Below are positions 3,356 through 53,498 of a DNA stretch of 64,000 bases, piece after piece (position 1 is the first letter of the stretch; every line of letters begins with the position of its first letter). This DNA comes from a virus, in the IMG/VR virus record IMGVR_UViG_3300027708_000025, positions 64,001-128,000 of that record. One strand, 5' to 3'. The position numbers and the translations under genes are program-made. The notes beneath the pieces are model-generated. The model ran no database searches and was not told the origin of the DNA. It saw only the letters and a program-made list of their open reading frames with translations.

Positions 3356-4378
3356 TCATCTCATCTTCCATATGTTGAATTCAAGTAGTGCTTTAGGACC
3401 ACGAAAGGTAAATTTATTTATTGTATCCAAGATTTCATTCTGCGCTTTTCCGGCTAGTATCATATCATTTATATCTTTTTCTTGATATGATTTAGGCCAG
3501 ATTGCTACATTTGCACCTGCACTAATTGCGTCACCTATCTCTCTTACGATTTCTTTATTACGTGGTTCATTATCATAGATCAATACCAACTTATCTTTCG
3601 GTAAGTGATTGAGTGCATACTTCAGATTTGAATTTCCAACTGCAACTGCATTGGGTAAGAATAGACTGTCAATTGGTCCTTCAGTCACAAAAATAGTCTG
3701 TGTTATATCTATCCCGTTCATGTTGAAAATCATAGGCGAATCATCTTTTATTTTCATCACGATGTATCGCAACTTCTCACCACGAATACCACGTGCCGTT
3801 AGTCCAACCAATTCATCATCGCTATCATAGAACGGCAATACAATTCTAGGCTCGTCAGTTACAATCTTCTCTTCATACTCTGGCGAGAAAACTTTTAACT
3901 TTTGAACATTGTCAACATAGTATAACGACTTTAATCTATCCTCAGGAATCTTTCGTAAACGTGCATATACAATCGCTTCATGCGTATCGCTGAGTTTAGA
4001 TAGGGGAGTTAGAACACCTTTTAGATTGTCCGTTTTGTTGCTACCGAATACAACAGGCTTAAAAACGAATCCGTGTTCTTTGTGTGCTTTACGACCAGTC
4101 TCACCTTCTTTGTATCGCTCTAAGCAATACTCTTTGTAGAGATTGGGATCAACTGCTTTGATTAGACTGCCAAGCGAAATGCTGACAGCACAATTGTGGC
4201 ACTTGTAGAATAGCCCACCTTTTTGTGCAAAGATGTATCCACGTGCCTTGTTTCTATTTGTTTGGGAATCACCACAGATAGGGCATCTGAAGTTATAGGT
4301 GTAGTCGCCTTTGCGAACAAATTTGTCCAAGCGAACTGAAAGTGTACCAATATACTTTTGGTCTATCCAAATACTCAT
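3356..4378 (-). CDS. 61: T4 gp61-like DNA primase
   Basis: Zn-binding CPICGDS...CHNC; TOPRIM motifs VTEGPIDSLF, YDNEPRN, KDINDM. Confidence 0.95.
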   Translation of the reverse strand: MSIWIDQKYIGTLSVRLDKFVRKGDYTYNFRCPICGDSQTNRNKARGYIFAQKGGLFYKCHNCAVSISLGSLIKAVDPNLYKEYCLERYKEGETGRKAHKEHGFVFKPVVFGSNKTDNLKGVLTPLSKLSDTHEAIVYARLRKIPEDRLKSLYYVDNVQKLKVFSPEYEEKIVTDEPRIVLPFYDSDDELVGLTARGIRGEKLRYIVMKIKDDSPMIFNMNGIDITQTIFVTEGPIDSLFLPNAVAVGNSNLKYALNHLPKDKLVLIYDNEPRNKEIVREIGDAISAGANVAIWPKSYQEKDINDMILAGKAQNEILDTINKFTFRGPKALLEFNIWKMR

Positions 4379-5720: not shown

Positions 5721-6761
5721 TTATACTGTGAATTTCTGATTATGCGTCATAAAGTTTTTCTTACGCATAACTGTCTTTGCTACTAAATCTAACTCTTCCG
5801 CATCTCTATCCCACTTCAATACAAATGGCAAATTGATTTGCGTCTTCATGTCATTCAATACTGCTTCAGCATCAGGTCCCAATGCGGGAATCTTTTTACC
5901 ATACTTTTGAATCGTCTTTTTAAATAACAACTGCAATTCATCTACTGTGATAGGTTTACCATTGCGTGAATCGTTAACTCTATCTAAAAAATGTTTAGTG
6001 AATGCAACATCAACATTTAACACTTTGAACAATTGATCTAGGTATTTTTCTAATTCATTTAATTGCGCCTGAGAAACTTCTTCAATTAATTGCTCTTTTT
6101 CAAATTGTTCTGTAAACATTCCACTACGCCCATGTCGTAAGAAAATCATTGAGCCAGTCTTTTCATCTTGTAGAATGATTGGCTTCTTAGGATACTTTCT
6201 GCCGTAGGTTCGTATTGCATTTCCAACTTCATCACTACCAACATACTTTTCATACTTAAGATATTTCTTTTTACCTGTACGTGCTTTGTTAAAACGCTCT
6301 GTGTCAACAACAAATACATCATTCTTTGCGAATCTACGTAAGAATGTTCTGCTTGCTGGAGGATTACCATCTAAGCCTGCAATGCCACTAGTTCCATTTG
6401 CAACATCTTCTTCTACGCCTTCAGACAAATATGTCTTGCCATTGTAATAGTCTAAGAATTGTTCTTCTAACGTTTCTTCTTTAATGTTCTTTTCTTCTTT
6501 GAGAAGGAACAATGCGGCCGCATAGGACGCAAGTTTGGTTTTACCAAATGGCAATTTTTCCAAAACTTTTTTAAGTTTTAGAATCAATAAGTCAAACTTA
6601 GTGAATGAATCATCTTGTGCTATTGTTCTTTTATCTGAAGGTACGACAATGTTTCCTTCGTCATCAATAACACCAGTTTTGTATGCTTCCCACTCTCCGA
6701 ACGGAGTAGTAAACAATCTTAAAATTCTATACACTAAGTATAAGTCTACTAAATTTGCCAC
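5721..6761 (-). CDS. T4-like conserved protein with appended domains (C-terminal RelE/BECR-like)
   Basis: N-terminal block typical of T4-like phages (RILRLFTTPFGEWEAYKTGVID...ASYAAALFLLKE); C-terminal FTKHFLDRVND...KTVMRK. Confidence 0.6.
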   Translation of the reverse strand: MANLVDLYLVYRILRLFTTPFGEWEAYKTGVIDDEGNIVVPSDKRTIAQDDSFTKFDLLILKLKKVLEKLPFGKTKLASYAAALFLLKEEKNIKEETLEEQFLDYYNGKTYLSEGVEEDVANGTSGIAGLDGNPPASRTFLRRFAKNDVFVVDTERFNKARTGKKKYLKYEKYVGSDEVGNAIRTYGRKYPKKPIILQDEKTGSMIFLRHGRSGMFTEQFEKEQLIEEVSQAQLNELEKYLDQLFKVLNVDVAFTKHFLDRVNDSRNGKPITVDELQLLFKKTIQKYGKKIPALGPDAEAVLNDMKTQINLPFVLKWDRDAEELDLVAKTVMRKKNFMTHNQKFTV

Positions 6762-7118
6762 TTATATACTCTTCTTTAATTTGTTGTACAATGCTAAATC
6801 TAAAACTCTTACGTCTTCTAATTTAACATACTCAAGATAAACTAAAAATGCATTCAATACATCATGGTTTTTTATATCTATCTTGAACCGTAACATATTG
6901 ACAGCCGCTTCAGCACCAAACACATTTGAAAGAGAAATTATGTGATTCAAAATCAATCTCTCTTTCAACTCACTCTTATCTACATATTTGTTTATAAGTC
7001 TTTTGATATACTTGATAATTTTCAGATCATCTAAAAACTCTAAAACTGATATGCAATTAGGATTAAAGTAGTTGCTTACTGCGTACTCATCAAAGTTATC
7101 ATCATTTAATGTAGACAT
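6762..7118 (-). CDS. Conserved T4-like hypothetical protein
   Basis: YFNPNC...EFLDDLKIIKYIKRL...ERLILNHII..SNVFG motif resembles a family common in T4-like phages. Confidence 0.75.
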   Translation of the reverse strand: MSTLNDDNFDEYAVSNYFNPNCISVLEFLDDLKIIKYIKRLINKYVDKSELKERLILNHIISLSNVFGAEAAVNMLRFKIDIKNHDVLNAFLVYLEYVKLEDVRVLDLALYNKLKKSI

Positions 7119-7654
7119 TAGAACGTGCTTAGTGCCACTCGCTTAATATGTGTCGTATTTGCCGCAATGTAAAGATAATTTGCATCCCAAGCAATTGTAC
7201 CTACTCCCCAACCAACTGCTGTATTGTTTGAACTTGCTGGTGTTCTAGCGGTACGCAAACGGACTGCATCAGAATTAATGTCGAATACTTCTGTTGGTGC
7301 ATTTGTTAAGAGACCAATTTTATCTGTAGTAGCATTAACATAAAACATGTTTGCCTGATTGTCAGATGAAATTCGTGTATCGGATGCAGAACCACTACTA
7401 TTGATAGTGATACCAGTATTGACTGTAAGTCCGTTTACTGAATTGATTGCAAATGTATTAGCTGAGAGTGTGCTTGTGCCTGATGCGCTAATGCTAATTG
7501 CGTTGACGCTGACTGTTGAAGTTGCGCCAAAGAAATTGTCTACAGTAATTTTTTTGCTTACTGGTGAACCCAATGGATCATCAATAACTAATAATAAATC
7601 TTCTTTTGTTGCTACAGTTAATGCTGTTAACTGCGTTACTTTTTTATCTGCCAT
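7118..7654 (-). CDS. Virion fibre/structural protein
   Basis: [13 protein letters not shown]...DLLLVIDD...KKIT N-terminus; Ser/Thr/Asn-rich body; C-terminal [11 protein letters not shown]...KRVAL. Confidence 0.65.
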
Positions 7655-7711
7655 TTTTCTTCCTTAATGTAAACCCAATTGAATGGGAATGCTACTTCCG
7701 GGACTCGGACC

Positions 7712-7741
7712 AAAAGGGGCAATGGTTTTACCCATCACCCC
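7712..7741 (-). terminator. Intrinsic terminator
   Basis: GGGGTGATGG-GTAAAA-CCATTGCCCC-TTTT on minus strand. Confidence 0.7.
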
Positions 7742-7749
7742 ATATAAGA

Positions 7750-8550
7750 TTAAACTGTTGTCAATGTTGCGTTTGCAGACACGACATTCGCTGAAATTCC
7801 AGTAGAAGACATTGTGACACGGTAGAGTGAATTTGAAAGTCCACCACCACCAGCCGCAATTGTATTGTTTGCAATCGTCAATGTTGTATTTGTTGTATTG
7901 CTGTATGTACCAGCGTTTGTCAAGTCCACGAATGCCGCATTTGAATTTGCGGCACGTTGCCAACGATAGTTGATCGTATTGCCAACTGGACGAATGCTTG
8001 CAACAATTGTGAATGTAGCGGCTGAGTTATTAGCGGCGCTATTAGCACTTGGTTGTGTGGTGATTGTGATAAAGCTATCACCGAATATTGCATCTTCTGC
8101 GTCACCAGTAATGGATCCCATTGAAACTAGAGTTTCAGTTTTTCTACGGCTGTTACCATGCATGTCAGTATACGTGTTTGTAAACTTCCAACCTGGTATT
8201 TCGTTGTAAGCTGTTGCTTCGTTTGTGTCAACACCAAATGTGTATGCGGTATTTGAAACTTGTGAACTTTGAACAGTTGCGCTGTTAGCGGCTAACCACT
8301 TTGGTGTGTCTTGTCCAGTAACTGTGCCTGCAACGTTAGCCGCAGTCCATGCTGGTTCAAAAGTCAATACTGTATTGCTTGTGATTCCAACAATTTTGCG
8401 TCTTGTTCCAGCAAGAACAAATGTGTCACCAACATCTAGTTCTGTTGTAAACACGGTTGATGTGCCTGTTAATATTGTAGTGTTAACAGTACTGTTTGCA
8501 AATGCAGTTCCTGTTACTGCGAATGTATCTCTGCTTCCCCATAGTGCCAT
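7750..8550 (-). CDS. Virion structural protein with C-terminal Ig-like domain (Hoc-like decoration candidate)
   Basis: MALWG start; ITITTQP...YRWQR...TLTI...YRVTMS...SANATLT Ig pattern; late promoter upstream. Confidence 0.7.
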   Translation of the reverse strand: MALWGSRDTFAVTGTAFANSTVNTTILTGTSTVFTTELDVGDTFVLAGTRRKIVGITSNTVLTFEPAWTAANVAGTVTGQDTPKWLAANSATVQSSQVSNTAYTFGVDTNEATAYNEIPGWKFTNTYTDMHGNSRRKTETLVSMGSITGDAEDAIFGDSFITITTQPSANSAANNSAATFTIVASIRPVGNTINYRWQRAANSNAAFVDLTNAGTYSNTTNTTLTIANNTIAAGGGGLSNSLYRVTMSSTGISANVVSANATLTTV

Positions 8551-8565
8551 GGTGTTCTCCTTTAA

Positions 8566-9060
8566 TTAATATCCGATTTTTCGTAATTGTGAAATAGTGT
8601 TAATACTATTTATATGTCTTATTCCTATTCCGCCCTTCGCAACCCACTCTTTTATGTTTTTTTCATAGTCATCTATTAAAAGATTAGGGGTTCCATCGCT
8701 AGTTACAGCGAATTTTTGTTTTTCTTCTCTTGGAACAAGATAAACATGCTCTACATTACCTAAATGTTTTCTAATCCATTCAAGTTTTTCTGGTTTACAA
8801 GTAGCCATACGCTTAGAAGGCGTAGACAATATGTAAGGCTGATGAGGCTTGATGTATCTCCATAACATCATAGCGTCAGACATAGGCTCTAAGTTAGCCC
8901 AAAACTTTGGTACTGAACGTAGTGCTTCCCATTTGACATCTTTTTCTCCTTGCTGAAAAGGCTGTAGACCTTTTGCCATTAATACTTTATTTGCGCCGCC
9001 CATAAAGTTGACTAGCACTTGGTCCATGTCACAATAAATTTGTGGCAATTCGTTATTCAT
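8566..9060 (-). CDS. HAD-family 5'(3')-deoxyribonucleotidase-like protein
   Basis: CDMDQVL (DxD), ILST, K, LIDD motifs. Confidence 0.85.
   Translation of the reverse strand: MNNELPQIYCDMDQVLVNFMGGANKVLMAKGLQPFQQGEKDVKWEALRSVPKFWANLEPMSDAMMLWRYIKPHQPYILSTPSKRMATCKPEKLEWIRKHLGNVEHVYLVPREEKQKFAVTSDGTPNLLIDDYEKNIKEWVAKGGIGIRHINSINTISQLRKIGY
8607..8614 (-). promoter_or_regulatory. T4-type late promoter
   Basis: TATAAATA upstream of 7750..8550. Confidence 0.7.
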
Positions 9061-9061
9061 T

Positions 9062-10897
9062 TTATTTTGCCGTATCTTTCAATTCAGGATTGATTTCAAT
9101 TGGTTCTCTTTTACCTGTCAATTGATCGCCTTTTTGAACTGTAGCCTTGTTAGGTGCTTCTTCATTCTTTGTTTTTTTTCTCATGTCTTTCCATGACTTC
9201 TTTTTAGCTTCAGTTACAATTTCAGTTTGTTCTTTGTTTAGAAGATTGTGATAGCGAACTGCTTTCTTCAAGTCTTTGCTTGCGTTTGCATTCTTTGGAT
9301 CACCTGCTTTGTCAAAATGATCGTCTGCTTTTTGTTGTGCTTCATTACCACGTTTGAGTTTATTAAGTTTGTCTTTAATAGTGGCTATGATGCTTTCAGA
9401 CATTTTTGGTTTCTTACCAGCCTTCTTCATTGCGATAGCGATAGCCGCTTGCTGTGCTGGTGATGCCGCTTCTTTAGCCAAACGCTTTTCTGCTCTGTCT
9501 TGTCCAATGCTTCTCATTGAAAATTTGTGTCCCGCTTTATTTGCAGACTTTGGATCGTTGTCTCTAATTCCTTTACCAATCTTGTTGAACTGATCGCCCT
9601 GATCTTTTTCAGATTTCTTAGCATAAGAGTGCAATGTGTCTTTGTTCAATTCGTCTAACTGAATCTCTTCGATGTACATGTTCAACTCATACTTGTGATT
9701 GTCCATATTGTACACTTGAAGGTGTAATTTCTTTTTAGATTCTTTGCCATCTTTCATTAGATTGACAGAGAATGAATTTGTTTTACCAGCAGATGGTTTC
9801 TTAGGACCAGTAGCAACTTTATCGTGCCAATCGTCCATGTCTACTTCAAAGCCACGCTTCTCTGCTTGTTTGATTGCTGTCTGTACTGCTGTGGAATAAT
9901 CTTTATGATAAACTTCGTAGTCAGATTTTGCTTCATCCATACGCCCATTAGATGCAAGTCTTTCTTTACGTCTTTGTGCGGCAAAGTCAGCACCTTGTGG
10001 TTTCTTTTTATTGCGAATTGCGGCTAAGTCAAAGCCATCAATCTTGCCGTTCTTGTTCTTGTCAAGTGCTTTTTGTTTTGGTGATAATTCTTCACCACGC
10101 AACTTTGCTAAATCAGAACCATCAATCTTGCCGTTCTTATTTTTATCTAATGCTTTTTGTTTTGGTGACAACTCTTCATTCTTTCGTTTTGCATAGTATG
10201 CGGCAAGAGCCATTTTCTTTCTCATCTCTTTAGACTTACCAGCAAACTTAGGATTATCAGAGTGTACAAAATCGTGAATAAAATCACCGGCGGTTGCATC
10301 TTTAGCAAGAACTTCAGCCAATTCAATATCTAATTCTTCATTTGTTTTCTTAGCATCATTGTCAAATTGCTTTCTAGTTGCTTTGATAATGCCAGAGAAA
10401 CGCTTGTTACCTTTTTTGATATCGCCTGCTTTGTCTGCGGCTGATGCATCAGCGCCAGCTTTCTTTTTGTAGTCTGCTAGTTTGTCGGTTGACAACTCAT
10501 CAATTTGCACTTCTTCTTTTTTCATGCTCTTTCTCATAACACGATTCTGTGCAAGTTTAGATACAAATTTTACATTTGCATCAGCAAGAGATTTTAAAGA
10601 TTTTAAATCTAATTTATCAAGCATAGCAATTAATTTCTTGTATGTGTCGCTATCCGGATCGATTGTATTAATCTTAGAGTACTCTGCTTTCAAAGCGGCA
10701 ATTTGAGATGCGCTAAATGATTCTGTCATTGTTTCTTCCTTCTGTAAAGATTTTTTTTGTGCTGAAAGTGCTTGACGTTCTTTATCTTGTTTCATACGTA
10801 ACTGAATCATTTTCAATGATAATTGGGCACGTTTTTCAGCAGTTTTATCTGCAATCGCTGTACCTGATCCAACTTTTGCTTCTTCTATATTTTTCAT
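9062..10897 (-). CDS. Modular Lys/Ala-rich putative internal head protein
   Basis: Start MKNIEEAK (GGAG SD); short modules separated by (I/L/M)-x-E; repeated units. Confidence 0.6.
   Translation of the reverse strand: MKNIEEAKVGSGTAIADKTAEKRAQLSLKMIQLRMKQDKERQALSAQKKSLQKEETMTESFSASQIAALKAEYSKINTIDPDSDTYKKLIAMLDKLDLKSLKSLADANVKFVSKLAQNRVMRKSMKKEEVQIDELSTDKLADYKKKAGADASAADKAGDIKKGNKRFSGIIKATRKQFDNDAKKTNEELDIELAEVLAKDATAGDFIHDFVHSDNPKFAGKSKEMRKKMALAAYYAKRKNEELSPKQKALDKNKNGKIDGSDLAKLRGEELSPKQKALDKNKNGKIDGFDLAAIRNKKKPQGADFAAQRRKERLASNGRMDEAKSDYEVYHKDYSTAVQTAIKQAEKRGFEVDMDDWHDKVATGPKKPSAGKTNSFSVNLMKDGKESKKKLHLQVYNMDNHKYELNMYIEEIQLDELNKDTLHSYAKKSEKDQGDQFNKIGKGIRDNDPKSANKAGHKFSMRSIGQDRAEKRLAKEAASPAQQAAIAIAMKKAGKKPKMSESIIATIKDKLNKLKRGNEAQQKADDHFDKAGDPKNANASKDLKKAVRYHNLLNKEQTEIVTEAKKKSWKDMRKKTKNEEAPNKATVQKGDQLTGKREPIEINPELKDTAK
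10020..10180 (-). repeat. Tandem duplication encoding EELSPKQKALDKNKNGKIDG(S/F)DLA
   Basis: Two near-identical ~27-codon units with synonymous differences; EF-hand-like loop DxNxNGxIDxxD. Confidence 0.9.
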
Positions 10898-10910
10898 GCG
10901 TATCTCCACT

Positions 10911-13793
10911 TTAATCTAATTCGCTTACGCTTTTGTCTGAACGCCACATTTGGCAAGACCAGTAGTTTGCTTTCCACTTTGGTCCAGGATTGTCGCAACC
11001 GTGTCTAGCACGATAACTTTTTAATCTTTCAGGATCGTCACGTTTGATTTCCATATTAGGATCACCAAAACGAACGACAACAACTTTACCATTTGGTCCC
11101 ATAGTGTATACACCAAACTTCTTTGGACCATCAGGTGTTCTGAATGGATCATTTAACTTAACAGATTTACCTTGATATTCTGCTTCATTGACAACTTGTT
11201 CCCAATCAACTTCTTCTCCAATTGAATCTTTTTCGCAATCACCGCAACAAGATTGATGATCTGCTGTTTGAATTTCTGTAGGTTGACCTGGAGTATCTGA
11301 GGCATATGCTTTACGCATCGCATCTGTACCCCATTCTAATGCTTCAGCAAATTTAGAAAACGCTTCATTCTTGTTAACCTTAGATGCTAGATCACTATCC
11401 GCACCACCCCATGTTCCTTTACCTTTTGTGATAAAAGAATTCACTCTAGCGAATGCCCATTGTTGTGATGTTGTTCCAGGACGATGGCCACCTTGCCATG
11501 CCGCCATGCCACGATTATATACTGCTTTTAGAATGCTATATGGTATACCAGATTTTTCTGCTTTCTTTTTCAATCCTTCGATTTCTTCTAAGATTGGTTT
11601 GAATTCTTCGTATGCATCACCAAACTCATCTGGTTGCATTTGACTTAGATGCATATCCATTTCTGCACCAGAAAACTCGCCATCATCTTCTTCACCATTA
11701 TCATCAATCTCAAAATTATCATCAAATTCTAGATAGTCACGAACTGTAGCAATGTAATCTTCTGCTTTAGTAATCTTAGATAAAACCCACTCATCAGGCT
11801 CTTCATCCATGTCATCTAACTGTTGGATTAAATCTTCTGCATCATCAATAATGTTAGACAATTGAATTTGTGCCATAGAGATTCCATCCATCTCTGCGGA
11901 ATCATCATATTCATCATCATATTCATTGTCTTCATTCATACCGACAAGTTTCATGCCAGTAACGTCTTGAATTAATTTCCAAGCGGCAGATTGATTTTTA
12001 TCTGCAATAAGTTTTTTAAGTTTTTCTTTTTCTTCTTTTGTTGCAACTTCAAAGAACTTCATCATTTCCATCATGCCAATGTTGCCTTTGTATGCGGCTT
12101 CATCAATAGACTCTTTTACAGTATTGAAATATGCTTCTGCTTCTCTTTTGCTTTTAAATGTCTTAGTCTGACTTGCAACAGAACCAGTTACTTTCCACTC
12201 AATGTGGTCTGTCGTTCTTCCAGCAGGCATTGAAATCTTTTCTATTTTTGGTGTTGTTTTTGTTGCAGGAATAATGTACTTTTTAAATCTATCGTCCACA
12301 GCCTCTTTTTGCAACTGTGTCTTTGTCATTCTAAACAATGCATCGCTTGAAGTTACCATATCAAGTAGCGTTGTCAACAAATCATTTGTGACATTGCGCT
12401 CTGAGGGACTTAACATGTCACCAGATTTTAATTTATCAACAGAACGTTTGATAACTGCAAGAGATTTAGTGTCTGCTAATCCCAAACGAACCAATTGGTC
12501 TAATCTAGAAACTTCTTTTCTTTGCTCTGGAGTTTTTACGCCTTCACCATACATCTGTTTGAATTTTTTTGTAAATTTAGATTGTGGTAAACCTTTTTCT
12601 CTAGCCTCTTTATCTCCAGGTGCATCTTTGTATGCGCTCTTATCTGAATCCGATTTCGGTCCATTTGTCGCAAAGTGTGATGCTCTAGCGTCTTTTGTAT
12701 CTTTGTCTAAACCAACATAATACTTCTTAGGTTGTGTTCCGTCTTTCTTTGCAACATCTTTGTCTTGTGGTAGAATTGGTTTTTCGATAATGAATTCTGC
12801 AAAGATATGATTGATATCTTCTTTGTTCATCATCATGGTTGCTTTACGTACAACTTCAGCGGATCTTGCTTTTGGAAATAAACGAACTGCAAGTTTTTTA
12901 ATAGCAGGTAAAGATTTTTGTAATCTCTTATCAACTGCAATTTTCTCTCCAGTACTTAAGTCTGCATAGTTTTTACCACCAGCAAGTCTTGATCTAAAGA
13001 ACTTGTATGCCATTTTAGTGGCACGACCTTTTAAATGTTTTGTATCTGCAAATCTTTTCATTTGCAATGCTCTAGCACGTTGAATGCGTTTTGACATTCT
13101 ACGTAACTGTTGCGCTCTCTGTCTACGTGCAGAGAAACTTAATACCGCTTCGTCTTGTTGTTCTATTTCTTCGTTCATGCCACCGCCTATGTATTTGTCT
13201 AAAAGTTTTTTCACCTTAGCTTTGTTTTTAGCTTTTGGATATAAATCATCAATGATTTTATCTCTACCTTCTGAGTCTGCGTCTGAATACATTTTTCTAA
13301 CTTGACTACCAGAGAATGCTTCTTTGCCATTAACTTTAAAGTCATGTTTCTTAGTCACAAAAATATATGCGTGTGTCTCAAATGATTCACACTTATCAAT
13401 GCTGACAAATGGTTGATAGTATGCTGGTGAACCATCTTTCTTTGTGTACTTCATGGGATCACGTTCAGAACGAATAAGAATGAGAACATCTTTCTTTTCG
13501 TCATACTTCTTCATAATCTCTTCTGGATTAATAGGCGAAACTGTTTGAACGAAATCGTCTGTAACTCCTGCTTGTTGTGCTAGGAATTCTTTGTCTTTGA
13601 ATGGGATTGGGCGGACTTTTGTGTCATTGCTAGATGCAACATAAAAGTCTGGAGTGTGGAATTTTTGTTTGGCTTGAGTGTAACTACTCAAATGACCGGC
13701 GTGAAATGGCTGAAAGCCACCACCGTATACGACAATTACTTTGCCCTTGGCTTTTGCTTCATCAAGCAATATTGATTCTTTAAACGATTTCAT
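10911..13793 (-). CDS. Multidomain protein: N-terminal HxGH nucleotidyltransferase (cytidylyltransferase-like) followed by many small modules
   Basis: GGGFQPFHAGH and SGSQVR motifs; later modules include YNRGMAAW..GHRPG...WAFARVNSF and FGDPNMEIK...RARHGC...YWSC. Confidence 0.75.
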   Translation of the reverse strand: MKSFKESILLDEAKAKGKVIVVYGGGFQPFHAGHLSSYTQAKQKFHTPDFYVASSNDTKVRPIPFKDKEFLAQQAGVTDDFVQTVSPINPEEIMKKYDEKKDVLILIRSERDPMKYTKKDGSPAYYQPFVSIDKCESFETHAYIFVTKKHDFKVNGKEAFSGSQVRKMYSDADSEGRDKIIDDLYPKAKNKAKVKKLLDKYIGGGMNEEIEQQDEAVLSFSARRQRAQQLRRMSKRIQRARALQMKRFADTKHLKGRATKMAYKFFRSRLAGGKNYADLSTGEKIAVDKRLQKSLPAIKKLAVRLFPKARSAEVVRKATMMMNKEDINHIFAEFIIEKPILPQDKDVAKKDGTQPKKYYVGLDKDTKDARASHFATNGPKSDSDKSAYKDAPGDKEAREKGLPQSKFTKKFKQMYGEGVKTPEQRKEVSRLDQLVRLGLADTKSLAVIKRSVDKLKSGDMLSPSERNVTNDLLTTLLDMVTSSDALFRMTKTQLQKEAVDDRFKKYIIPATKTTPKIEKISMPAGRTTDHIEWKVTGSVASQTKTFKSKREAEAYFNTVKESIDEAAYKGNIGMMEMMKFFEVATKEEKEKLKKLIADKNQSAAWKLIQDVTGMKLVGMNEDNEYDDEYDDSAEMDGISMAQIQLSNIIDDAEDLIQQLDDMDEEPDEWVLSKITKAEDYIATVRDYLEFDDNFEIDDNGEEDDGEFSGAEMDMHLSQMQPDEFGDAYEEFKPILEEIEGLKKKAEKSGIPYSILKAVYNRGMAAWQGGHRPGTTSQQWAFARVNSFITKGKGTWGGADSDLASKVNKNEAFSKFAEALEWGTDAMRKAYASDTPGQPTEIQTADHQSCCGDCEKDSIGEEVDWEQVVNEAEYQGKSVKLNDPFRTPDGPKKFGVYTMGPNGKVVVVRFGDPNMEIKRDDPERLKSYRARHGCDNPGPKWKANYWSCQMWRSDKSVSELD

Positions 13794-13857
13794 GTGTAAT
13801 AGAGTTTTCCGTAGACTTATCTGTACAGGTTTGCCTTAGCCTAACTGCGTTATAGTT

Positions 13858-13865
13858 TATTTATA
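13858..13865 (-). promoter_or_regulatory. T4-type late promoter
   Basis: TATAAATA 65 nt upstream of the 960-aa gene. Confidence 0.8.
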
Positions 13866-13883
13866 ATAATATCAAATTACATT

Positions 13884-14942
13884 TTAATGTGGTGCATAAA
13901 TGCCTTTGCCGACTTCCAAATAAAATTTAGCTTCATTTGCTGGAGGTGGTCTCAATTTCGTTCGAATTTGAAATATAGGAACATCAGTTTTTTTGTCTTT
14001 AAATACTAAATTATTTCCATTTGATACTGCGGTTAGCTGAACCGTTTTTCTTAAATTATTAAAATACTCTACGGTAATTTCTTTCAACCCTGAGGAATTA
14101 ACATCAACTACGTCAGACAAATCAGAACCAAAAATACTCTTAGATAAAAAGTCCAAGGCATTTTTTGTGAACTGAGGTTTATTAGATTCTTTTATGATTT
14201 CTGTTTTTAAATCATTATACAGAGATGTTATCAATTCAAACTTTGCTTTTTGTTCTACGGGACCGAAAAATGGTTTTGATAATCTAACGTAATCTTCTTT
14301 GGCTGTCCATTTTATACCCAATGCGTCTGCTATGTCTAACATGCCGTTATACGGAGATAAATTTGCTACAGTAACACTTTCTGATTTTAATGAAAATGGT
14401 AATGATCCAGCAATTAGTTTTTTAGTGGAACCTTTTCTAACTGCATGTACTTCTAATGTAACATCGCCCTTAAGTTCTCCTCCGCTAGCCTCTCCAGCAA
14501 TACCATCTGATATTACCATAAATGTAACCACTTCTCCATAATTATTATCTAAAAAGTAATTTACAGCACCAGCGGCTCTTTTAACAAAGTTTGCTGTAGT
14601 TGTGGCTTCGATAAGTTTGTCAATTTTTTTATTAATATTACCAATGTCTTTAGATGATTTATACAGGACTTCATATTCTTTGTCGAATGCTCCAACAACG
14701 GACTCTGGCTTCAAACGCATTTCAAATCCAACATTAAAAAAGTCTGGAGGGTTTTGGCCCTTCTGCCTCATGTGATTTTCAACTACGGAATATTTAAATC
14801 TTCCAGTACTAAATATTTTGGTGTCAATTTTAGTACGAATTTTATTCAATTCATTCTTATCAACTTTTCCATATGCAAGATATAGAGACAAGGCAATAGT
14901 AAAAATTCCCTCAATAACATCACCTTCATTTAATTTAGCCAC
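13884..14942 (-). CDS. Putative PD-(D/E)xK restriction-endonuclease-fold protein
   Basis: N-terminal helix E (NEGDVIEG), KGDV...FSLK catalytic-like motif; AGGAG SD. Confidence 0.45.
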   Translation of the reverse strand: MAKLNEGDVIEGIFTIALSLYLAYGKVDKNELNKIRTKIDTKIFSTGRFKYSVVENHMRQKGQNPPDFFNVGFEMRLKPESVVGAFDKEYEVLYKSSKDIGNINKKIDKLIEATTTANFVKRAAGAVNYFLDNNYGEVVTFMVISDGIAGEASGGELKGDVTLEVHAVRKGSTKKLIAGSLPFSLKSESVTVANLSPYNGMLDIADALGIKWTAKEDYVRLSKPFFGPVEQKAKFELITSLYNDLKTEIIKESNKPQFTKNALDFLSKSIFGSDLSDVVDVNSSGLKEITVEYFNNLRKTVQLTAVSNGNNLVFKDKKTDVPIFQIRTKLRPPPANEAKFYLEVGKGIYAPH

Positions 14943-14964
14943 ATTACTCTCCTTCTTTTAATTA

Positions 14965-15288
14965 TTATACACTAAAACTACTGCCACAACCGCAAGTGTG
15001 TTTTGCATTTGGATTAGTAATTACAAATTCTTTTCGCATAAACTCATCTTTGTAGTCTATGTTTGCATCTTGTAAATATTGCATACTCATTGCATCAATT
15101 AAAACTCTAAATTCGTCTAGAGGAAATTCAAAATCATCATCATTCTTAACTTCGTCCATTGTAAATCCGTAATTGAATCCAGAACATCCACCACCCACAA
15201 CAAACGTTCGTAGTGAAATGTTTGGATTGTTTTCTTCTCGTAACAAGTCTATGATCTTAGACTTTGCAACATCTGTTATTGTAATCAT
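14965..15288 (-). CDS. erpA: A-type Fe-S carrier (ErpA/IscA, HesB family)
   Basis: GGGCSGFNYGF, NPNAKHTCGCGSSF. Confidence 0.9.
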   Translation of the reverse strand: MITITDVAKSKIIDLLREENNPNISLRTFVVGGGCSGFNYGFTMDEVKNDDDFEFPLDEFRVLIDAMSMQYLQDANIDYKDEFMRKEFVITNPNAKHTCGCGSSFSV

Positions 15289-15640
15289 TTATGGCCGCCT
15301 TTATAGCATCTTCTGCAAGTATTGAACAATGAATTTTAACCGGTGGTAAGGCAAGTTCTTCAGCAATTTGTGAATTAGATATCTTTCCTGCTTCGTCAAG
15401 TGTTCTGCCCTTGACCCACTCTGTGACAAGACTGCTGGATGCAATTGCACTTCCACAGCCGTATGTTTTGAATTTTGCATCTGTAATTATTCCTTCTTCT
15501 ACTTTAATTTGAAGTTTCATAACATCGCCACATGCTGGCGCACCCACCATACCAGTGCCTATGTTATCAGCATCTTTATCAAATGATCCCACATTTCGTG
15601 GATTTTCGTAATGATCTAAAACTTTTTGAGAATATGACAT
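15257..15640 (-). CDS. iscU: Fe-S cluster scaffold IscU
   Basis: DHYENPRNVG, APACGDVM, GCGSAIASSS, LPPVKIHCS. Confidence 0.97.
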   Translation of the reverse strand: MSYSQKVLDHYENPRNVGSFDKDADNIGTGMVGAPACGDVMKLQIKVEEGIITDAKFKTYGCGSAIASSSLVTEWVKGRTLDEAGKISNSQIAEELALPPVKIHCSILAEDAIKAAINDYNNRCCKV

Positions 15641-15704
15641 ATTTGCCGTTAAAAATAGTTACCCGATGTATACATAAAGGTGTCCGGTTTCAATTTAAAC
15701 CTTA

Positions 15705-16931
15705 TTACCTCTGCCAACCTTTAATGATATCAGGTGAGAAGTTTGCATAGCTGAATTGCATTCTGTCAACTAACTTGACTGCATTGCCTTTGATCTTGTC
15801 AATAGCAACATACCCCTCAACACCAGTTACTTCGTAACCTTTTTTAGTCAACAAGAAAGTATTCAACGTCTTAACTTCATCCATTTTCTTAATCAAAATC
15901 AACTTCGCTTCTGCTAATAGATTCATCATTGTGAAAATGTCTTCTAAATGTGATTTGTTTTTTGGCGAGAAGAATTTAAGTACTTTGCTTTTCTTTAGCA
16001 TCTGAGTAGCACGACCACGTTCACCTTTACCTTCAGCCTGTTTCTCGTAGTAATCTTCAATGTATGTAATCAATTCTTTAACGTGCGCTTTGACGTTTGT
16101 GATTTTCAACTGTTGACGTACTTTTGAATTGTTGAATGTCTTAATGCGTTCAATCAAATCTTCATCTGTATTAATGTAGTTTAGAGTAGCGGCATCTAAT
16201 TTTTGGAATATCTTTCCAGCATCAGATAGAATTGCTGTCACTTCGTCACTCTCTGCTTGTGTCAACGTAGCTTTACCAGACACATCGTGATAGACTGCAC
16301 TTGTCATCCAAACGTTTGAATTTTTTGTAAGTGTGCTTAGAATGTCTTTACCAAAGACTGCTGATAGTGTCTCAAACGAATCACCTTCGTAAATTGTATG
16401 CCAAACGATACCAATCTTTGCTTTTTGTATCTCTTTAGCAAGTTCAGTTTCTGTCGGTACTGCATAGACTAAAGTATTTGGATGAAACGTAACATACGAT
16501 TCACCTTCAATTGTTTCTGTCTTTAAGTCTGCTTGTGTGAATAGCAAGTCGCCTTGAATGACACCTTTGATGTTGATCTTAGGCAAATACATCAAACATG
16601 CTTTGAGTTTGTCTGCTAAGTCGCCAGATGTGTCTGCATCAACTTCTGCTGGAGTTTTATACACTTTGGGATTTTTATTGAAGACGCCTTTTTTCGCAAC
16701 AAAGAATTTGCCGTCTGTTGGGTCTTGTCCTGCAAAGACTGCTGGCGCACCATCCCACTTGACTGAAATGTCAACTTTGCTTTTGGAATGTCCAGCAAGC
16801 ATATCACGCACCGCTCTGAGTGCGTTTATGCTATCTCTAGTACCTTCAACACCACCATTGAGAACATCGTCTTCCGCATGTTCCATGTGAGTGTTTTTCT
16901 TTTCAATAAGGTATTCTTTAAATTTAAACAT
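15705..16931 (-). CDS. DUF6267-like protein; ligase/nucleotidyltransferase-like motifs
   Basis: NTHMEHAED N-terminus; VKWDG, QGDLLF, EGYV, VKLVDR motifs. Confidence 0.65.
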   Translation of the reverse strand: MFKFKEYLIEKKNTHMEHAEDDVLNGGVEGTRDSINALRAVRDMLAGHSKSKVDISVKWDGAPAVFAGQDPTDGKFFVAKKGVFNKNPKVYKTPAEVDADTSGDLADKLKACLMYLPKINIKGVIQGDLLFTQADLKTETIEGESYVTFHPNTLVYAVPTETELAKEIQKAKIGIVWHTIYEGDSFETLSAVFGKDILSTLTKNSNVWMTSAVYHDVSGKATLTQAESDEVTAILSDAGKIFQKLDAATLNYINTDEDLIERIKTFNNSKVRQQLKITNVKAHVKELITYIEDYYEKQAEGKGERGRATQMLKKSKVLKFFSPKNKSHLEDIFTMMNLLAEAKLILIKKMDEVKTLNTFLLTKKGYEVTGVEGYVAIDKIKGNAVKLVDRMQFSYANFSPDIIKGWQR

Positions 16932-16964
16932 AATAGGTCTGTCGTTGCAATAGACCTATTTATA
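16932..16964 (-). promoter_or_regulatory. Late promoter overlapping a hairpin that abuts the start codon
   Basis: TATAAATA at 16957-16964; inverted repeat AATAGGTCT/AGACCTATT (16932-40, 16952-60). Confidence 0.75.
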
Positions 16965-16965
16965 A

Positions 16966-17304
16966 TTATCTTCGCATCAATGCTTGATCTTTTGCGTCAT
17001 CATTAGAAAAAATAGGAACTGCATTGCTTTTGTGCAACGTGCCGATGCCAATCATCTTGTCACCAGTGTAAACTTTTCCATAAACAGGCTTAGTGCAATT
17101 GTCGCCAACTGTAGCTAAACTGGGATAGTTGGGAGTTTCACGAATGTTTGCTTTTGGGGGTTTGTATGCTTCTACTATCTTAGGCTTTTTGAAACCTTTA
17201 GAAAATGAAGTTGTCGGAAGATTCTTTAGCCAAGTTTCATACTCTGCAACTTTCTTTGCAGGAGTTTTTTTCTTCTTTGATTTTTGATATGTGTAAATTA
17301 ACAT
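16966..17304 (-). CDS. Basic conserved phage hypothetical protein
   Basis: C-terminal YTG..MIGIGTLHKSNAVPIF motif resembles one seen in T4-like phages. Confidence 0.7.
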   Translation of the reverse strand: MLIYTYQKSKKKKTPAKKVAEYETWLKNLPTTSFSKGFKKPKIVEAYKPPKANIRETPNYPSLATVGDNCTKPVYGKVYTGDKMIGIGTLHKSNAVPIFSNDDAKDQALMRR

Positions 17305-17945
17305 GATGTAAGTTCGTCAACAAAGTTTAACAATAATTTATGGTTTCGTTCTTCGTGCCAATGTTTTGATATATACCCTCTAGGCTTTTCATACCAATAC
17401 TTCTGACTCTCAGGATGACAACCAATCACACCCACACGATTTTGAATGATTGCCATAGCGTCACCATTCGCATAAGTAGATACTATTTTAGCACGTTCTA
17501 GATTGCCTGTCAATGCACATCCATCGTAAAAAAACAACGTTTCAGGTTTGCCGTTCCAAGTAACATTTGCTACAGTAGAATATGATCTACGAATATCTGC
17601 TGTATTTTGTTTAATATACTGAACAGGTTCAATATCATCTAGTATATCAAAATAGTGACTGCCAGCCCAATATGCACCCATACATATTCCGAGATAATAT
17701 CCTTTAGATTCAACAAAATCTGCTATCATATTAGCACGTTTGCGTCTAAAGAATTTATCATAAGAATCTGCATCTCCGATACCTCCAGGAAATGCAACAA
17801 TATCTGTATTGTTCAAAACTGTCAGTAAATCACTATCTGTATTGAATAAATTAATCTTGTAATTTGACGATAATGCTTTAATCATTCCATCACAACAATC
17901 CGTAGAGCATTCTGGATGATTAACAAACAATGATATAGATTTCAC
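17298..17945 (-). CDS. Class I glutamine-amidotransferase-like (BPL_N-like) protein
   Basis: FPGG, YLGICMGAY nucleophile elbow, GCHPE triad. Confidence 0.8.
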   Translation of the reverse strand: MKSISLFVNHPECSTDCCDGMIKALSSNYKINLFNTDSDLLTVLNNTDIVAFPGGIGDADSYDKFFRRKRANMIADFVESKGYYLGICMGAYWAGSHYFDILDDIEPVQYIKQNTADIRRSYSTVANVTWNGKPETLFFYDGCALTGNLERAKIVSTYANGDAMAIIQNRVGVIGCHPESQKYWYEKPRGYISKHWHEERNHKLLLNFVDELTSC

Positions 17946-19006: not shown

Positions 19007-20422
19007 TTATACCTTTAGATTGCCAAAGTCTCGGTTTTTTTGCATTCGTTTGCCGAATCCAGACTTATCAAATGCGGGTTTGTCATCTTCAATTTGTCCA
19101 CTATCGGAAATGTTAGTTTGTGCTGACTCTTCTGCATCATAGAGTTTCATTTTTGCTCTGTCAACACCAATCACAAAACGTTTGTTTGTTGTTGGATCGC
19201 TGTAACGATTCTTCAACTGCTTGACCATGATCTGATTTAAGTCTGCAAGTTCTTCGGTTGAAATCAAAGCAAACATCAAATCTGCTGTAGCTGGCAGACC
19301 AAACGATTCTGAAGTATCTTCAAGCCCAACGTCAGAGTTTGTGAAACCACTTCTTGTTGTTTGTGTAGCTGATACGACAGGCACTTTATGCTCAACTGCA
19401 AGTCCACGCAATTCTTCTGCAATTGCTTTAATATATGTGTAAGAGTTTATAGAAGAGCCCATCTTCATACGTGCGGAAGAACAGATGTTTAGATAGTCAA
19501 TGTAAATGATATCAGGAACAAATTGACGTTTCAATTTCAACTCATTCAACAAATGTGCAAAGTGATTTACGTTTGCACTAGCGGTTGGATATTCTTTGAT
19601 GATTAACTTACCTTTAGTCTTCTCACGTAGAGTTTCAACTTTCTTCAAGTATACGTCTTTAGGCATACCAATCAATCTGTCAAGTTCAACATTCATCAAG
19701 TTAGCATCAATACGTTCTGCAATACGTTCTTCAGCCATTTCCATTGTGATGTAGAGAACGTTCTTGCCCATTGTCAGATTGGCTGCCGCACAATGACACA
19801 TGAACAAAGATTTACCAACACCAGTACCAGCAAGAACGATGTTCAGAGATTTTTCTGCAAGCCCACCTTTAGTGATTCTATTCAAATAGTCGAGATCGAA
19901 TGGGATTCGTCTTTCAACTTTATGATAGAAATCATATCGTGTTTCTGCGTCATCAATAAAATCGTGCCCAATGTGATTGTCAAAAGAAACCGAAAGCGCA
20001 TCTGCTAGGATTTTAGGGATTGAACCTTTATCAAGTTTTTCTGTATTGTTCTTATTCTTGTCATCAAGAATCTGAATGCTTTGCATGATGCCATTATAGA
20101 TAGCTTTCTCTTGGCAGAAATCTTCTGTGGCGTCAATCAACCATTTGGTGTCGGACACCTCAGGATCAATTGTGATTTGTTTGACTAACGCAATAGTTTT
20201 CTTGTGTTGGTCATCTGTTAGATTAACTCTCTTGTCAATCTCAATAGCCAATGCTTCTTGCGTTGGCATTGTGTTATACTTATTTACATAACTTTCAATT
20301 TCAGAAAACAATAATTTTTCTGAAGAATCTTGAAAATACTCTCCTCTAATGAATGGTAAAGTCTTTCGTGTATACTCTTCATCCAATATCAGGTGTTTCA
20401 GTATTTTTTGTTCCAAGTTCAT
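19007..20422 (-). CDS. 41: T4 gp41-like replicative helicase
   Basis: AGTGVGKS Walker A, IYIDYLNI, SATQTTR, QLKNRY. Confidence 0.97.
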   Translation of the reverse strand: MNLEQKILKHLILDEEYTRKTLPFIRGEYFQDSSEKLLFSEIESYVNKYNTMPTQEALAIEIDKRVNLTDDQHKKTIALVKQITIDPEVSDTKWLIDATEDFCQEKAIYNGIMQSIQILDDKNKNNTEKLDKGSIPKILADALSVSFDNHIGHDFIDDAETRYDFYHKVERRIPFDLDYLNRITKGGLAEKSLNIVLAGTGVGKSLFMCHCAAANLTMGKNVLYITMEMAEERIAERIDANLMNVELDRLIGMPKDVYLKKVETLREKTKGKLIIKEYPTASANVNHFAHLLNELKLKRQFVPDIIYIDYLNICSSARMKMGSSINSYTYIKAIAEELRGLAVEHKVPVVSATQTTRSGFTNSDVGLEDTSESFGLPATADLMFALISTEELADLNQIMVKQLKNRYSDPTTNKRFVIGVDRAKMKLYDAEESAQTNISDSGQIEDDKPAFDKSGFGKRMQKNRDFGNLKV

Positions 20423-49909: not shown

Positions 49910-50560
49910 TTATAGCTTGGAGAGGAAATCTTTAAACACTTTTATCATGTTTTCTTCCAAGTCTTTCTTAGAAGACTTCTGAATGACTTGTCTCTGTGTT
50001 GAAATGTCGGCTTCTCTAATGATTCCGTTATCCCAAACCCATGCTTTATTTTCCATAATACCACGTACATATGCATCTGGTGCTGAAGGATCGGCTACGA
50101 TATCTGCACATGTTGCGAGATAAAAATCGTTACCAACAACTTTAGTTCCATCTTTTCCTTCTACGAGACTACCTAAGCCTCTTGTAGATACGCCTAGCGT
50201 TGCGCCTTCAGTCATTAAATTCTTTACGATGTTACCGTATGGTGTTTCCATAATCTTTGCTTTACCGATGAAGTTGTTTCCATCTTGACGCAAACTCTTA
50301 GTAATGTGTGACACACGTTCTAAATTGATAGTTGGACCATCTGGATGCCCTAACTCACCATAAGCACGATTCTTCATTACACTTTCAGTAACATATCGAT
50401 CTGTTTCTTTTTGCAAAACTGCTAATGGATACATTCTTCCATTACGATTCTTTTGTTCTGCTTGCATGAAGATACCTTCAATGTAGAAACTTCTACCGCC
50501 AGCTTCGTTTGCTTCAGTAATGATATTTACTTGCTCATTAATTTCTGTGATTAGTTTCAT
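49910..50560 (-). CDS. 21: Prohead protease gp21
   Basis: MKLITE, NRNGRMY, GELGHP, GVSTRGLGS, DIVADPSAPDA. Confidence 0.97.
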   Translation of the reverse strand: MKLITEINEQVNIITEANEAGGRSFYIEGIFMQAEQKNRNGRMYPLAVLQKETDRYVTESVMKNRAYGELGHPDGPTINLERVSHITKSLRQDGNNFIGKAKIMETPYGNIVKNLMTEGATLGVSTRGLGSLVEGKDGTKVVGNDFYLATCADIVADPSAPDAYVRGIMENKAWVWDNGIIREADISTQRQVIQKSSKKDLEENMIKVFKDFLSKL

Positions 50561-50847
50561 TTTAGTCCTGCCGATGTTCTTTTTCTAAGTGACCTTGTTC
50601 TTTTGCGTAGAATCAAAGCAAGTTTTGGTGCACGTTTTCTAGCCGCTTTGCGTTGTGCCATTTTACGATGCATTTTTTCTTGTGAAGACATTCTTACAAG
50701 TTTGCCTCCTAAGACTTTATATCCAGGTGTTGCTGATACAATTTTTCTGCGCTGAACAATTCCAGCACGTACTCTATTGACTTTAACAAGCCTAGCTTCG
50801 TCTACCTGTTCGTCAGACAAAGATATAAAATCTTTAAATTTTAACAT
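50557..50847 (-). CDS. Prohead core protein gp68-like
   Basis: Very basic; immediately upstream of 21; MLKFKDFI leader. Confidence 0.7.
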   Translation of the reverse strand: MLKFKDFISLSDEQVDEARLVKVNRVRAGIVQRRKIVSATPGYKVLGGKLVRMSSQEKMHRKMAQRKAARKRAPKLALILRKRTRSLRKRTSAGLK

Positions 50848-51315: not shown

Positions 51316-51822
51316 TTATTCTTTCGCTATAGTTTTTGCAAATGCTAAAAGTACTTCAGCATCTTCTTCCAACTGATTCAAAAAGATTTCTTGATTGCTT
51401 TCGTCTAACTGATCGTAAAGATTAGAGAGTAAATCAACATCTTCGTTTTTCAAAGCACCACGTGCCTGTGCGGCTTTAAGCATTGCAACTCTATCTTTGT
51501 ATCCAGCAACACCAGGTTTGATATCTTTAGCGGCTTTCTTTTCAGCGGCATTTGGATTACTAATGTGTTTCATTGTAGTCTTAGACTGATGACTATCAAC
51601 TTCACCAAATGGTTGCTTGTTGTCGAGTCTATCAGCAGGACGTTTGCCAGAACCTTTTTTAGTGTCGTGTGGTCCGATTTCTTCAGGTCCGACTTTTTCT
51701 AAATCTCCAGGGTCTTTAGTTTGAGCAAGATATGACACGGCTGCCATTTTATTGGCAATAGCATCTTTGTACTTTACTCTTTCTATTTCATCCAACTGGA
51801 TAAAACTTTTAAAGTTCTTCAT
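51316..51822 (-). CDS. Putative internal head/core protein
   Basis: MKNFKSFIQLDE leader; LKNE|D site; located in the head locus. Confidence 0.6.
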   Translation of the reverse strand: MKNFKSFIQLDEIERVKYKDAIANKMAAVSYLAQTKDPGDLEKVGPEEIGPHDTKKGSGKRPADRLDNKQPFGEVDSHQSKTTMKHISNPNAAEKKAAKDIKPGVAGYKDRVAMLKAAQARGALKNEDVDLLSNLYDQLDESNQEIFLNQLEEDAEVLLAFAKTIAKE

Positions 51823-53490: not shown

Positions 53491-53498
53491 TATTTATA
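53491..53498 (-). promoter_or_regulatory. T4-type late promoter
   Basis: TATAAATA. Confidence 0.75.

Follow-up and report, generated by a model that had tools for sequence, protein, structure and literature searches.

The DNA analysed here is a window of 64,000 nucleotides, bases 64001-128000 of the 150,107-bp genome of an uncultured, aquatic, T4-like phage (IMG/VR record IMGVR_UViG_3300027708_000025), and our subject is an island of genes at positions 5721-16964 of this window. The island lies between the genes of a DnaB-like helicase (19007-20422) and a primase (3356-4378; 41% identity to the primase of Methylophilales phage Melnitz), where an earlier note on this DNA had placed it. Two of its proteins, a 408-amino-acid (aa) member of the DUF6267 family and a 960-aa polyprotein (g960), begin with a short leader similar to the capsid-targeting peptide of the T4 internal proteins. 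We propose, with a probability of about 0.7, that such tagged enzymes are loaded into the phage head, cut by a gp21-type protease and delivered with the DNA. Head-loaded, protease-matured enzymes, as implied by the leaders, the gp21-type protease and the late promoters, fit every sequence test that was run and are partly supported, and the T4 capsid-targeting principle very probably operates here on enzyme and polyprotein cargo. The earlier note had extended this proposal to a larger set of island enzymes. That part stood for the 408-aa and 960-aa proteins, which carry convincing leaders. A 352-aa protein, a 346-aa protein, the Fe-S proteins IscU and IscA and the nucleotidase NT5C have none at the N-terminus.

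Four proteins of the window carry strong leaders, which start M-x-x-F-K-x-[FYS]-[IL]…E: MFKFKEYLIE↓K on the 408-aa protein (15705..16931; leader codons 16902-16931) and MKSFKESILLDE↓A on g960 (10911..13793; leader 13758-13793), both in the island, and MKNFKSFIQLDE↓I on a 168-aa protein (51316..51822) and MLKFKDFISLSDEQVDE↓A on a 96-aa protein (50557..50847), both in the head locus (↓ marks the predicted cut). All four genes are on the minus strand, which also carries every gene of the island region, and the four N-termini read exactly as the earlier note had given them. The strict motif was matched at six N-termini among the 212 open reading frames (ORFs) of the whole genome, compared with 0.2 expected (Poisson p = 7e-8). 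When the same ORFs were ranked with a weight matrix trained solely on the leaders of 94 DUF6267 homologues from other phages, the 408-aa, 168-aa, 960-aa and 96-aa proteins came first, with scores of 15.9, 13.8, 12.4 and 11.7, followed by two small ORFs outside the window and then by a clear gap. These two, a 77-aa ORF with the leader-like start MKKFKEFIQG… (genome positions 2266-2499, minus strand; score 8.3) and a 100-aa ORF starting with MFKKIKEFFTNSKPAVE↓A (55978-56280, minus strand; score 9.2), are candidate head cargo. The shorter leaders that had also been proposed, MKNIEE on a 615-aa protein and MAKLNE on the 352-aa protein, were absent from the 15 best matrix scores and could not be distinguished from chance. 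Given these low scores and the frequency of [IL]xE in ORF starts (within the first 20 residues in 45 of the 212), both were rejected as stand-alone evidence.

The internal proteins IPII and IPIII of T4 start with MKTYQEFIAE↓A, and IPI starts with MKTFKEFTSTTTPVSTITE↓A, i.e. MKTFKEF…ITE↓A (NC_000866). According to T4 mutagenesis, residues 4 and 7 are responsible for targeting, and residues 8 and 10 for processing (PMC9026906). In the four window leaders residue 4 is F, residue 7 is Y, F or S, and residue 8 is L or I, in the same register as in the three T4 proteins; the 408-aa protein has its leader Glu at position 10, the other three have it at positions 12 to 17, as in IPI. The head genes of the window match the T4 gp21, gp22 and gp23 families. 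The prohead protease reported in the earlier note at 49910..50560 (minus strand) was confirmed as gp21-type by its match to phrog_207 (E=3e-76) and by 40% identity to T4 gp21 across the catalytic core, where the His and Ser blocks GEL(G/N)HP and GVS(T/S)RGLGS are conserved. The leader-bearing 96-aa protein (phrog_3503; net charge +23, pI 12) is a putative prohead-core or internal protein. Elsewhere in the head locus, a gene for a 638-aa collagen-repeat tail-fibre-like protein (53494-55410) lies between the portal and head-core genes and interrupts the T4 order 20-67-68-21.

The island had also been described as driven by late promoters. The T4-type late promoter box TATAAATA is indeed present on the minus strand upstream of the DUF6267 gene (16957..16964), upstream of the g960 gene (13858..13865), and inside the 3' end of the NT5C gene, upstream of a gene for a 266-aa protein (8607..8614). 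The raw count of this box in the window is not significant (9 observed vs 5.1 expected), and the signal is the bias in strand and position: 9/9 copies occur on the minus strand, which is the coding one, and each immediately precedes the start of a gene; the remaining six belong to the genes for the sheath, gp22, gp23 and other head or tail proteins. As far as the sequence alone can tell, the boxes of the 408-aa, 960-aa and 266-aa genes share the strand and position pattern of the head and tail gene boxes. The DUF6267 gene has no obvious Shine-Dalgarno sequence, and its late box is separated from its start codon by a stretch with a perfect 5-bp hairpin (GGTCT…AGACC, 16935-16955).

The 408-aa protein appears to be an RNA-ligase-like covalent nucleotidyltransferase. 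It matches Pfam family DUF6267 (PF19782) with E=1.8e-105 (353.8 bits vs a cutoff of 27); the domain begins at residue 13, and the leader precedes the conserved mature start KKNTHMEH. Across 110 diverged DUF6267 sequences, no substitution is seen at K58, D60, G373 or K386, and at least 90% of the sequences keep G61 and E372. Ligase motif I, KxDG with the catalytic lysine, is present, and E372/G373 and K386, located in strands of the modelled nucleotidyltransferase core, were assigned to motifs IV (EG) and V (K-x-K-like) by position rather than by superposition. The AlphaFold2 (AF2) model is of high confidence (predicted local distance difference test score, pLDDT, 94; predicted template modelling score 0.91), and residues 1-10 are disordered in it (pLDDT <50), as would be expected of a propeptide. 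The 13 best structural matches found by VIA-align are all nucleotidyltransferase domains of ligases (Z 8.1-6.3), led by the RNA ligases REL1 (Z 8.1, root-mean-square deviation (rmsd) 4.1, 191 residues aligned), NgrRnl (7.8), T4 Rnl2 (7.6), Trl1 (7.5) and T4 Rnl1 (7.2), and DNA ligases match at Z 6.6 or below. Foldseek matches were weak (E ~0.1), and a search of the PDB sequences with the protein, alone and as a profile, gave no meaningful match. Because the Z values are middling, we call the protein ligase-like, with an RNA ligase preferred but not settled. The KxDG ligase-like call of the earlier note is in agreement with the DUF6267 match and the conserved K58, D60 and G61.

Close homologues of the protein (71-97% identity) keep M-x-x-F-x-x-[YF]-[LI]-x-E before KNTH(M/L)EH. 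Conservation was surveyed in the 150 best of 2627 cluster representatives, in which most full-length members are 36-55% identical; among these 150, most full-length members carry the leader, and a minority start 1-5 residues before KNxH, i.e. at the predicted mature end. Fusion proteins containing DUF6267 keep tag-like or (I/L/M)xE linkers ahead of KNTH. The leader is conserved, as the proposal of the earlier note required, in most full-length DUF6267 proteins and in about half of the homologues of the g960 nucleotidyltransferase. Two cyanophages have leaderless DUF6267 genes, S-WAM1 (L002:7995-9188) and S-SZBM1 (L006:13478-14671), whose products start with M[SA]KNTHLEH at the predicted mature N-terminus. 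Both genes overlap the start of a leader-bearing nucleotidyltransferase gene, thereby forming a natural pair with and without the tag.

The second tagged island protein, g960, has matches to Pfam CTP_transf_like and DUF5824. Its N-terminal module (~residues 13-208) had been taken for an HxGH nucleotidyltransferase, and this call was upheld: CTP_transf_like (PF01467) scores 27.2 bits vs a cutoff of 21, and the HxGH motif follows the first beta-strand (VVYGGGFQPFHAGH). The module aligns weakly to PPAT structures and has no close characterised relative in this family (NMNAT/PPAT/GCT kind); its substrate may be NMN, phosphopantetheine, glycerol-3-P or another compound. About half of its homologues have a leader, the others begin at the first beta-strand, and the HxGH is kept. 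In g960, this module is followed by a basic one (residues 209-417, charge +24), by further modules, by an acidic one (622-737, charge -39), by the DUF5824 module (738-870; positions 11184-11582) and by a C-terminal module (871-960; 10914-11183), with putative junction Glu residues at 208/215, 417, 621, 736/737 and 860/870. In Phage C48C1, Melnitz and many IMG/VR relatives, the parts of g960 are separate leader-bearing genes. We mapped the leader Glu of each stand-alone orthologue (DUF5824, middle and C-terminal modules) onto g960, and it fell at residues 202-215, 624, 722-737 and 843-869, where g960 has MNE/QDE, MNE, ILEE and IGE/VNE, respectively. The junctions read GGGMNE-EIEQQDE↓A, VGMNE↓D, FKPILEE↓IEGLKKKAEKSG and SIGE↓E…VVNE↓AEYQG. 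The leader is reused as a linker inside g960 at just those points where relatives have separate leader-bearing genes. The junction at residue 417, FKQMYGE↓G, matches YKQMFGE↓D and FKDMYEE↓V, which precede a different module in relatives, and modules have therefore been swapped precisely at the joint.

Enrichment of the leader among relatives, which the earlier note had suggested as a check, was assessed in 80 IMG/VR loci around DUF6267, a matrix score of at least 8 being counted as a leader. This score was reached by 186 of 1188 forward ORFs vs 10 of 1732 ORFs on the reverse strand and 6 of 5504 windows at internal Met residues, a 25- to 150-fold enrichment over these controls. Position 10 is the commonest place for the first Glu of the IMG/VR leaders; 79% of 185 have I or L at P3, and P1' is mostly A, E, Q, D or G. 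Eighty-one of the 186 leader ORFs fall into 32 further sequence clusters, which include a Zeta/AAA_33 P-loop kinase, an HD_4 (SpoT-type) hydrolase and a HAD-type DxDxT protein; examples are the leaders on an HD_4 (RelA/SpoT-type) hydrolase and a stand-alone Zeta-toxin/AAA_33 P-loop kinase (L047:15203-15760; L080:5542-6225). The fusions found were kinase-DUF6267, DUF6267-CTase-DUF5824, CTase-DUF6267, leader-CTase-kinase (CTase, cytidylyltransferase-like domain) and a RelE-like domain joined to DUF6267 (P0259), and such fusions would tie the cargo activities together functionally.

Published particle proteomes of cyanophages bear on the proposal. Mass spectrometry of S-SZBM1 (PMC9146016) and S-CREM2 (PMC10665884) particles lists a "cytidylyltransferase" together with neighbouring island proteins, and NMNAT-like proteins have also been reported in S-SCSM1 and S-CBWM1 particles. 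The enzymes detected in virions carry leaders, MRFRQFIIE↓A in S-SZBM1_140 and MKNFSSFLTE↓A in S-CREM2_154, and the leaderless DUF6267 protein S-SZBM1_141 is absent from the S-SZBM1 virion list (PMC9146016). The 266-aa protein of the window is homologous to S-SZBM1_136, an abundant particle protein. The S-SCSM1 and S-CREM2 papers note that NMNAT-like proteins are frequent in cyanophage particles and ask whether they are real components or carry-over (the latter paper is PMC10665884); none of the S-SZBM1, S-CREM2 and S-SCSM1 papers mentions a targeting tag or protease processing. Orthology of the window nucleotidyltransferase with the virion-detected enzymes could not be demonstrated (BLASTP E=0.07; tblastn found only two records, neither from a cyanomyovirus). 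Since it belongs to another subfamily than the cyanophage enzymes, the proteomic support is by analogy.

The enzymes might instead act late in the cytoplasm, in which case the N-terminal motif would have another task, such as directing proteins to assembly sites, controlling their turnover or aiding translation, and the proteomic detection would be contamination. Such a role would suit an island located among replication and nucleotide-metabolism genes and containing the leaderless NT5C, IscU and IscA, and contamination was raised by the S-CREM2 authors themselves (PMC10665884). However, the motif is in register with the experimentally defined T4 tag, also occurs on proteins encoded in the head locus of this phage, has the protease motif at its end, and is kept inside fusion proteins, where no action on translation initiation is possible; moreover, the enzyme family occurs in at least four independent cyanophage particle proteomes. 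We consider a purely cytoplasmic role improbable. It is also quite improbable, in our estimate, that the tagged proteins are accessory components of the scaffold or core, which are loaded and then degraded and expelled like most of T4 gp22, gp67 and gp68, so that nothing functional is delivered. The same leader is indeed found on the 96-aa protein, which matches a head-scaffolding PHROG, and the acidic and low-complexity basic modules of g960 look structural rather than enzymatic. On the other hand, ligase-type catalytic residues are invariant in DUF6267 and the HxGH is kept in the nucleotidyltransferase, which therefore indicates selection for enzyme activity, and tryptic peptides of an enzyme of the homologous family were found in mature cyanophage particles. 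Lastly, chance likeness of lysine-rich starts in an A+T-rich genome (~37% G+C), which may well account for MKNIEE and MAKLNE, can be rejected for the four strong leaders, its likelihood being negligible in view of the Poisson p of 7e-8 and the enrichment in the 80 loci.

Other proteins of the island were examined as well. The 615-aa protein (9062..10909, minus strand) is very basic (net +38) and has the atypical N-terminus M(EIRM)KNIEE↓A; its distant homologues start with MKSFKQIRE↓A or MKSFKELRE↓K, and it is solely through these leader-bearing homologues that it may be regarded as a candidate internal protein. At ~residues 235-300, it contains a tandem duplicate of ~35 residues (ELSPKQKALDKNKNGKIDG[SF]DLA…), which scores as an EF-hand/dockerin-type calcium-binding loop just under the Pfam thresholds. 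The 346-aa protein (5721..6761, minus strand) consists of an N-terminal domain (phrog_18642) and a RelE/RegB-like C-terminal domain (residues 229-346; positions 5724-6077). It lacks an N-terminal tag and has an internal leader relic, MFTEQFEKEQLIEE↓V (6078-6119), ahead of the latter domain. This domain is conserved in more than 1000 stand-alone proteins starting with MRKFSELRE↓ or similar, in which His, Arg, Asp, Asn and Lys residues are invariant. Most of this stand-alone family (P0391-P0510) has a variant form of the tag, M-R-[KS]-F-[SK]-x-[LI]-R-E (nine residues, Arg at P2), which is the dominant one there and also heads distant homologues of the 615-aa protein. For residues 229-346, the best AF2 model had a pLDDT of 80.8 and the other four 53-65. 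Foldseek placed HigB2/RelE on top (E 0.04-0.3), and VIA-align gave Z 6.4 for both RelE (rmsd 3.0, 76 aligned) and T4 RegB (rmsd 6.0, 118 aligned). Of the RelE/BECR-like cargo proposed earlier, the likeness at the fold level was thus retained, but the 346-aa protein itself has no N-terminal leader. The 352-aa protein (13884..14942, minus strand) could be placed in no known family and has a low matrix score and no convincing leader. It had no match in Pfam, PHROG, PDB sequences or phage tblastn, and its one homologue among the 80 related loci is leaderless too. The PD-(D/E)xK nuclease assignment made for it rests solely on a weak protein-atlas (language-model) lead to RE_HaeIII/RE_HpaII clusters.

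In the order of transcription, the island comprises the box at 16957, the genes for the 408-aa DUF6267, IscU-like, IscA-like and 352-aa proteins, the box at 13858, the genes for the 960-aa and 615-aa proteins and NT5C, the box at 8607, the 266-aa protein gene, a hairpin, and then the genes for the 178-aa, DUF7207 and 346-aa proteins. The IscU/NifU-like Fe-S scaffold (15257..15640; NifU_N E=1.5e-52), apparently a passenger metabolic gene, and the IscA/HesB-like Fe-S protein (14965..15288; Fe-S_biosyn E=1.1e-15) have no leader; together (14965-15640) they form overlapping frames inside the late island, an unusual auxiliary metabolic pair for a T4-like phage. NT5C (8566..9060; phrog_2643) is a predicted HAD-family 5'(3')-deoxyribonucleotidase with 31.1 bits vs a Pfam cutoff of 24.8 and CDMDQV (DxDxV/T motif) at residues 10-15, and it was correctly described in the earlier note as leaderless. 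The 266-aa homologue of a virion structural protein (7750..8550; phrog_613 head protein), likewise without a leader, is followed at its 3' side by a terminator-like hairpin (7716-7741). The 178-aa, DUF7207, 352-aa, NT5C, IscU and IscA proteins are untagged and are not necessarily cargo. A gene for a 215-aa class-I glutamine amidotransferase-like/BPL_N-like protein (17298-17945) directly precedes the island on its upstream side. No DNA-level match to the island was found in 50,697 phage records. Protein comparisons gave Phage C48C1, Melnitz, Pelagibacter phage HTVC008M and cyanomyoviruses as the nearest records, and the helicase-to-primase island is syntenic in S-WAM1, S-SZBM1, C48C1 and Melnitz.

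Several points weigh against head loading, cleavage and delivery of these enzymes. Cleavage, encapsidation and injection in this phage are proposed by analogy with T4, and only one of the four window leaders has its first plausible cleavage Glu at position 10, whereas in the other three it comes at position 12 to 17. The 13 [LIVM]xE sites of g960 are not above chance, and in this protein only their coincidence with module borders seems informative. Because several island genes carry no leader, the island should not be equated with a cargo set. The S-CREM2 authors warn of carry-over of abundant proteins through CsCl purification (PMC10665884), and BLAST detects no similarity between the window and cyanophage nucleotidyltransferases, which share the Pfam family and the gene position. 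Finally, the DUF6267 and RelE-like models gave fold matches of middling strength (Z 6-8), and confidence was low for four of the five models that AF2 produced for the RelE-like domain.

From these results, the following mechanism of head delivery may be suggested. The island would be a late-transcribed cargo block of a T4-like phage. During prohead assembly the tag would bind the proteins to the scaffolding core, by analogy with T4 IPI, IPII and IPIII, after which the gp21-type protease would cut after the Glu of (I/L)-x-E and remove the tag; the same protease would also divide the 960-aa chain wherever a tag-like junction lies within it. Once matured, the enzymes would be retained in the head and exit with the DNA at infection. 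Our best guess at their function is an immediately available kit for handling RNA and nucleotides, combining RNA end-joining, nucleotidyl transfer and RelE/RegB-type RNA cutting, which in relatives would be supplemented by a kinase, an HD hydrolase and a HAD-like protein. Such a kit may help the phage to take over the host or to evade defences directed at RNA or nucleotides. As deduced from folds and gene fusions, such a toolkit function is plausible.

The closest parallel is provided by the T4 internal proteins that bear the capsid-targeting sequence. They share with the window proteins a tag of ~10 residues with an aromatic residue at position 4, a hydrophobic one at 7/8 and a Glu where the cut is made or predicted, the presence of a gp21-type protease gene in the head cluster, genes that are late or, here, putatively late, and diverse mature parts behind one tag, one of them small and very basic (here the 96-aa protein). 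Unlike the T4 proteins, which are small, basic and non-enzymatic, the predicted cargo here includes large enzymes and a 960-aa multi-module chain with tag-like joints, targeting and cleavage being read from sequence alone; unlike the T4 ip loci, the genes are located between helicase and primase. The ADP-ribosyltransferase Alt of T4 is likewise a head-carried, gp21-trimmed enzyme delivered for early host takeover (PMC9026906), but it is a single enzyme, its propeptide is of another kind and shorter, and its sequence is unrelated to those of the proteins described here. The NMNAT-like "cytidylyltransferases" of the cyanomyoviruses S-SZBM1, S-CREM2, S-SCSM1 and S-CBWM1 resemble the window enzyme in the CTP_transf_like domain and in the position by DUF6267 between helicase and primase, and the S-SZBM1 and S-CREM2 members have the same leader, whereas the subfamily is different (FGRFNPP(H/T)xGH vs GGGFQPFHAGH in the window enzyme). 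In phiKZ and SPN3US, many head-internal proteins are reportedly cut after Glu by a gp21-related protease, but the cleavage motif and the phage lineage are different; we know of no T4-type N-terminal tag described for their head proteins. The predicted activities also recall T4 Pnkp with Rnl1/Rnl2 repair and RegB: the ligase-like fold is nearest to Rnl2, REL1 and Rnl1, one domain has a predicted RelE/RegB-like fold, and relatives encode a tagged AAA_33/Zeta-type P-loop kinase and a HAD-like (DxDxT) protein. The T4 enzymes, however, are early, cytoplasmic and unpackaged, and no sequence-level homology with the enzymes predicted here was detected.

The general idea of tagged proteins delivered by the head was anticipated in the T4 literature (PMC9026906), whereas we are aware of no earlier description of the cargo of enzymes and a polyprotein, of the joints, or of the connection with the enzymes seen in cyanophage proteomes. 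Our literature search found no paper mentioning DUF6267 or DUF5824 and none linking a capsid-targeting sequence to cyanophage proteomes. More tentatively, and with the odds somewhat against it, the capsid-targeting peptide could be a general grammar in T4-related aquatic phages, an address combined with a cleavable joint at which genes fuse, split and swap, yielding a shuffled, capsid-delivered RNA and nucleotide kit that acts before phage gene expression.

The leader offers a concrete mechanism for the presence of NMNAT-like "cytidylyltransferases" and other enzymes in purified cyanophage particles, and the T4 capsid-targeting rule, so far based on three small proteins of an E. coli phage, would apply to an abundant group of aquatic T4-like phages as well. 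A first fold and context are assigned to DUF5824 and DUF6267, the latter a family of more than 2600 clusters at 50% identity, and metagenomes could be screened with the tag for candidate virion cargo. Provided that the enzymes do enter the cell with the DNA, infection would start with ready-made RNA-joining, RNA-cutting and nucleotide-transfer activities, which would be relevant to how slow-growing hosts are taken over and to how defences based on RNA or nucleotides are evaded.

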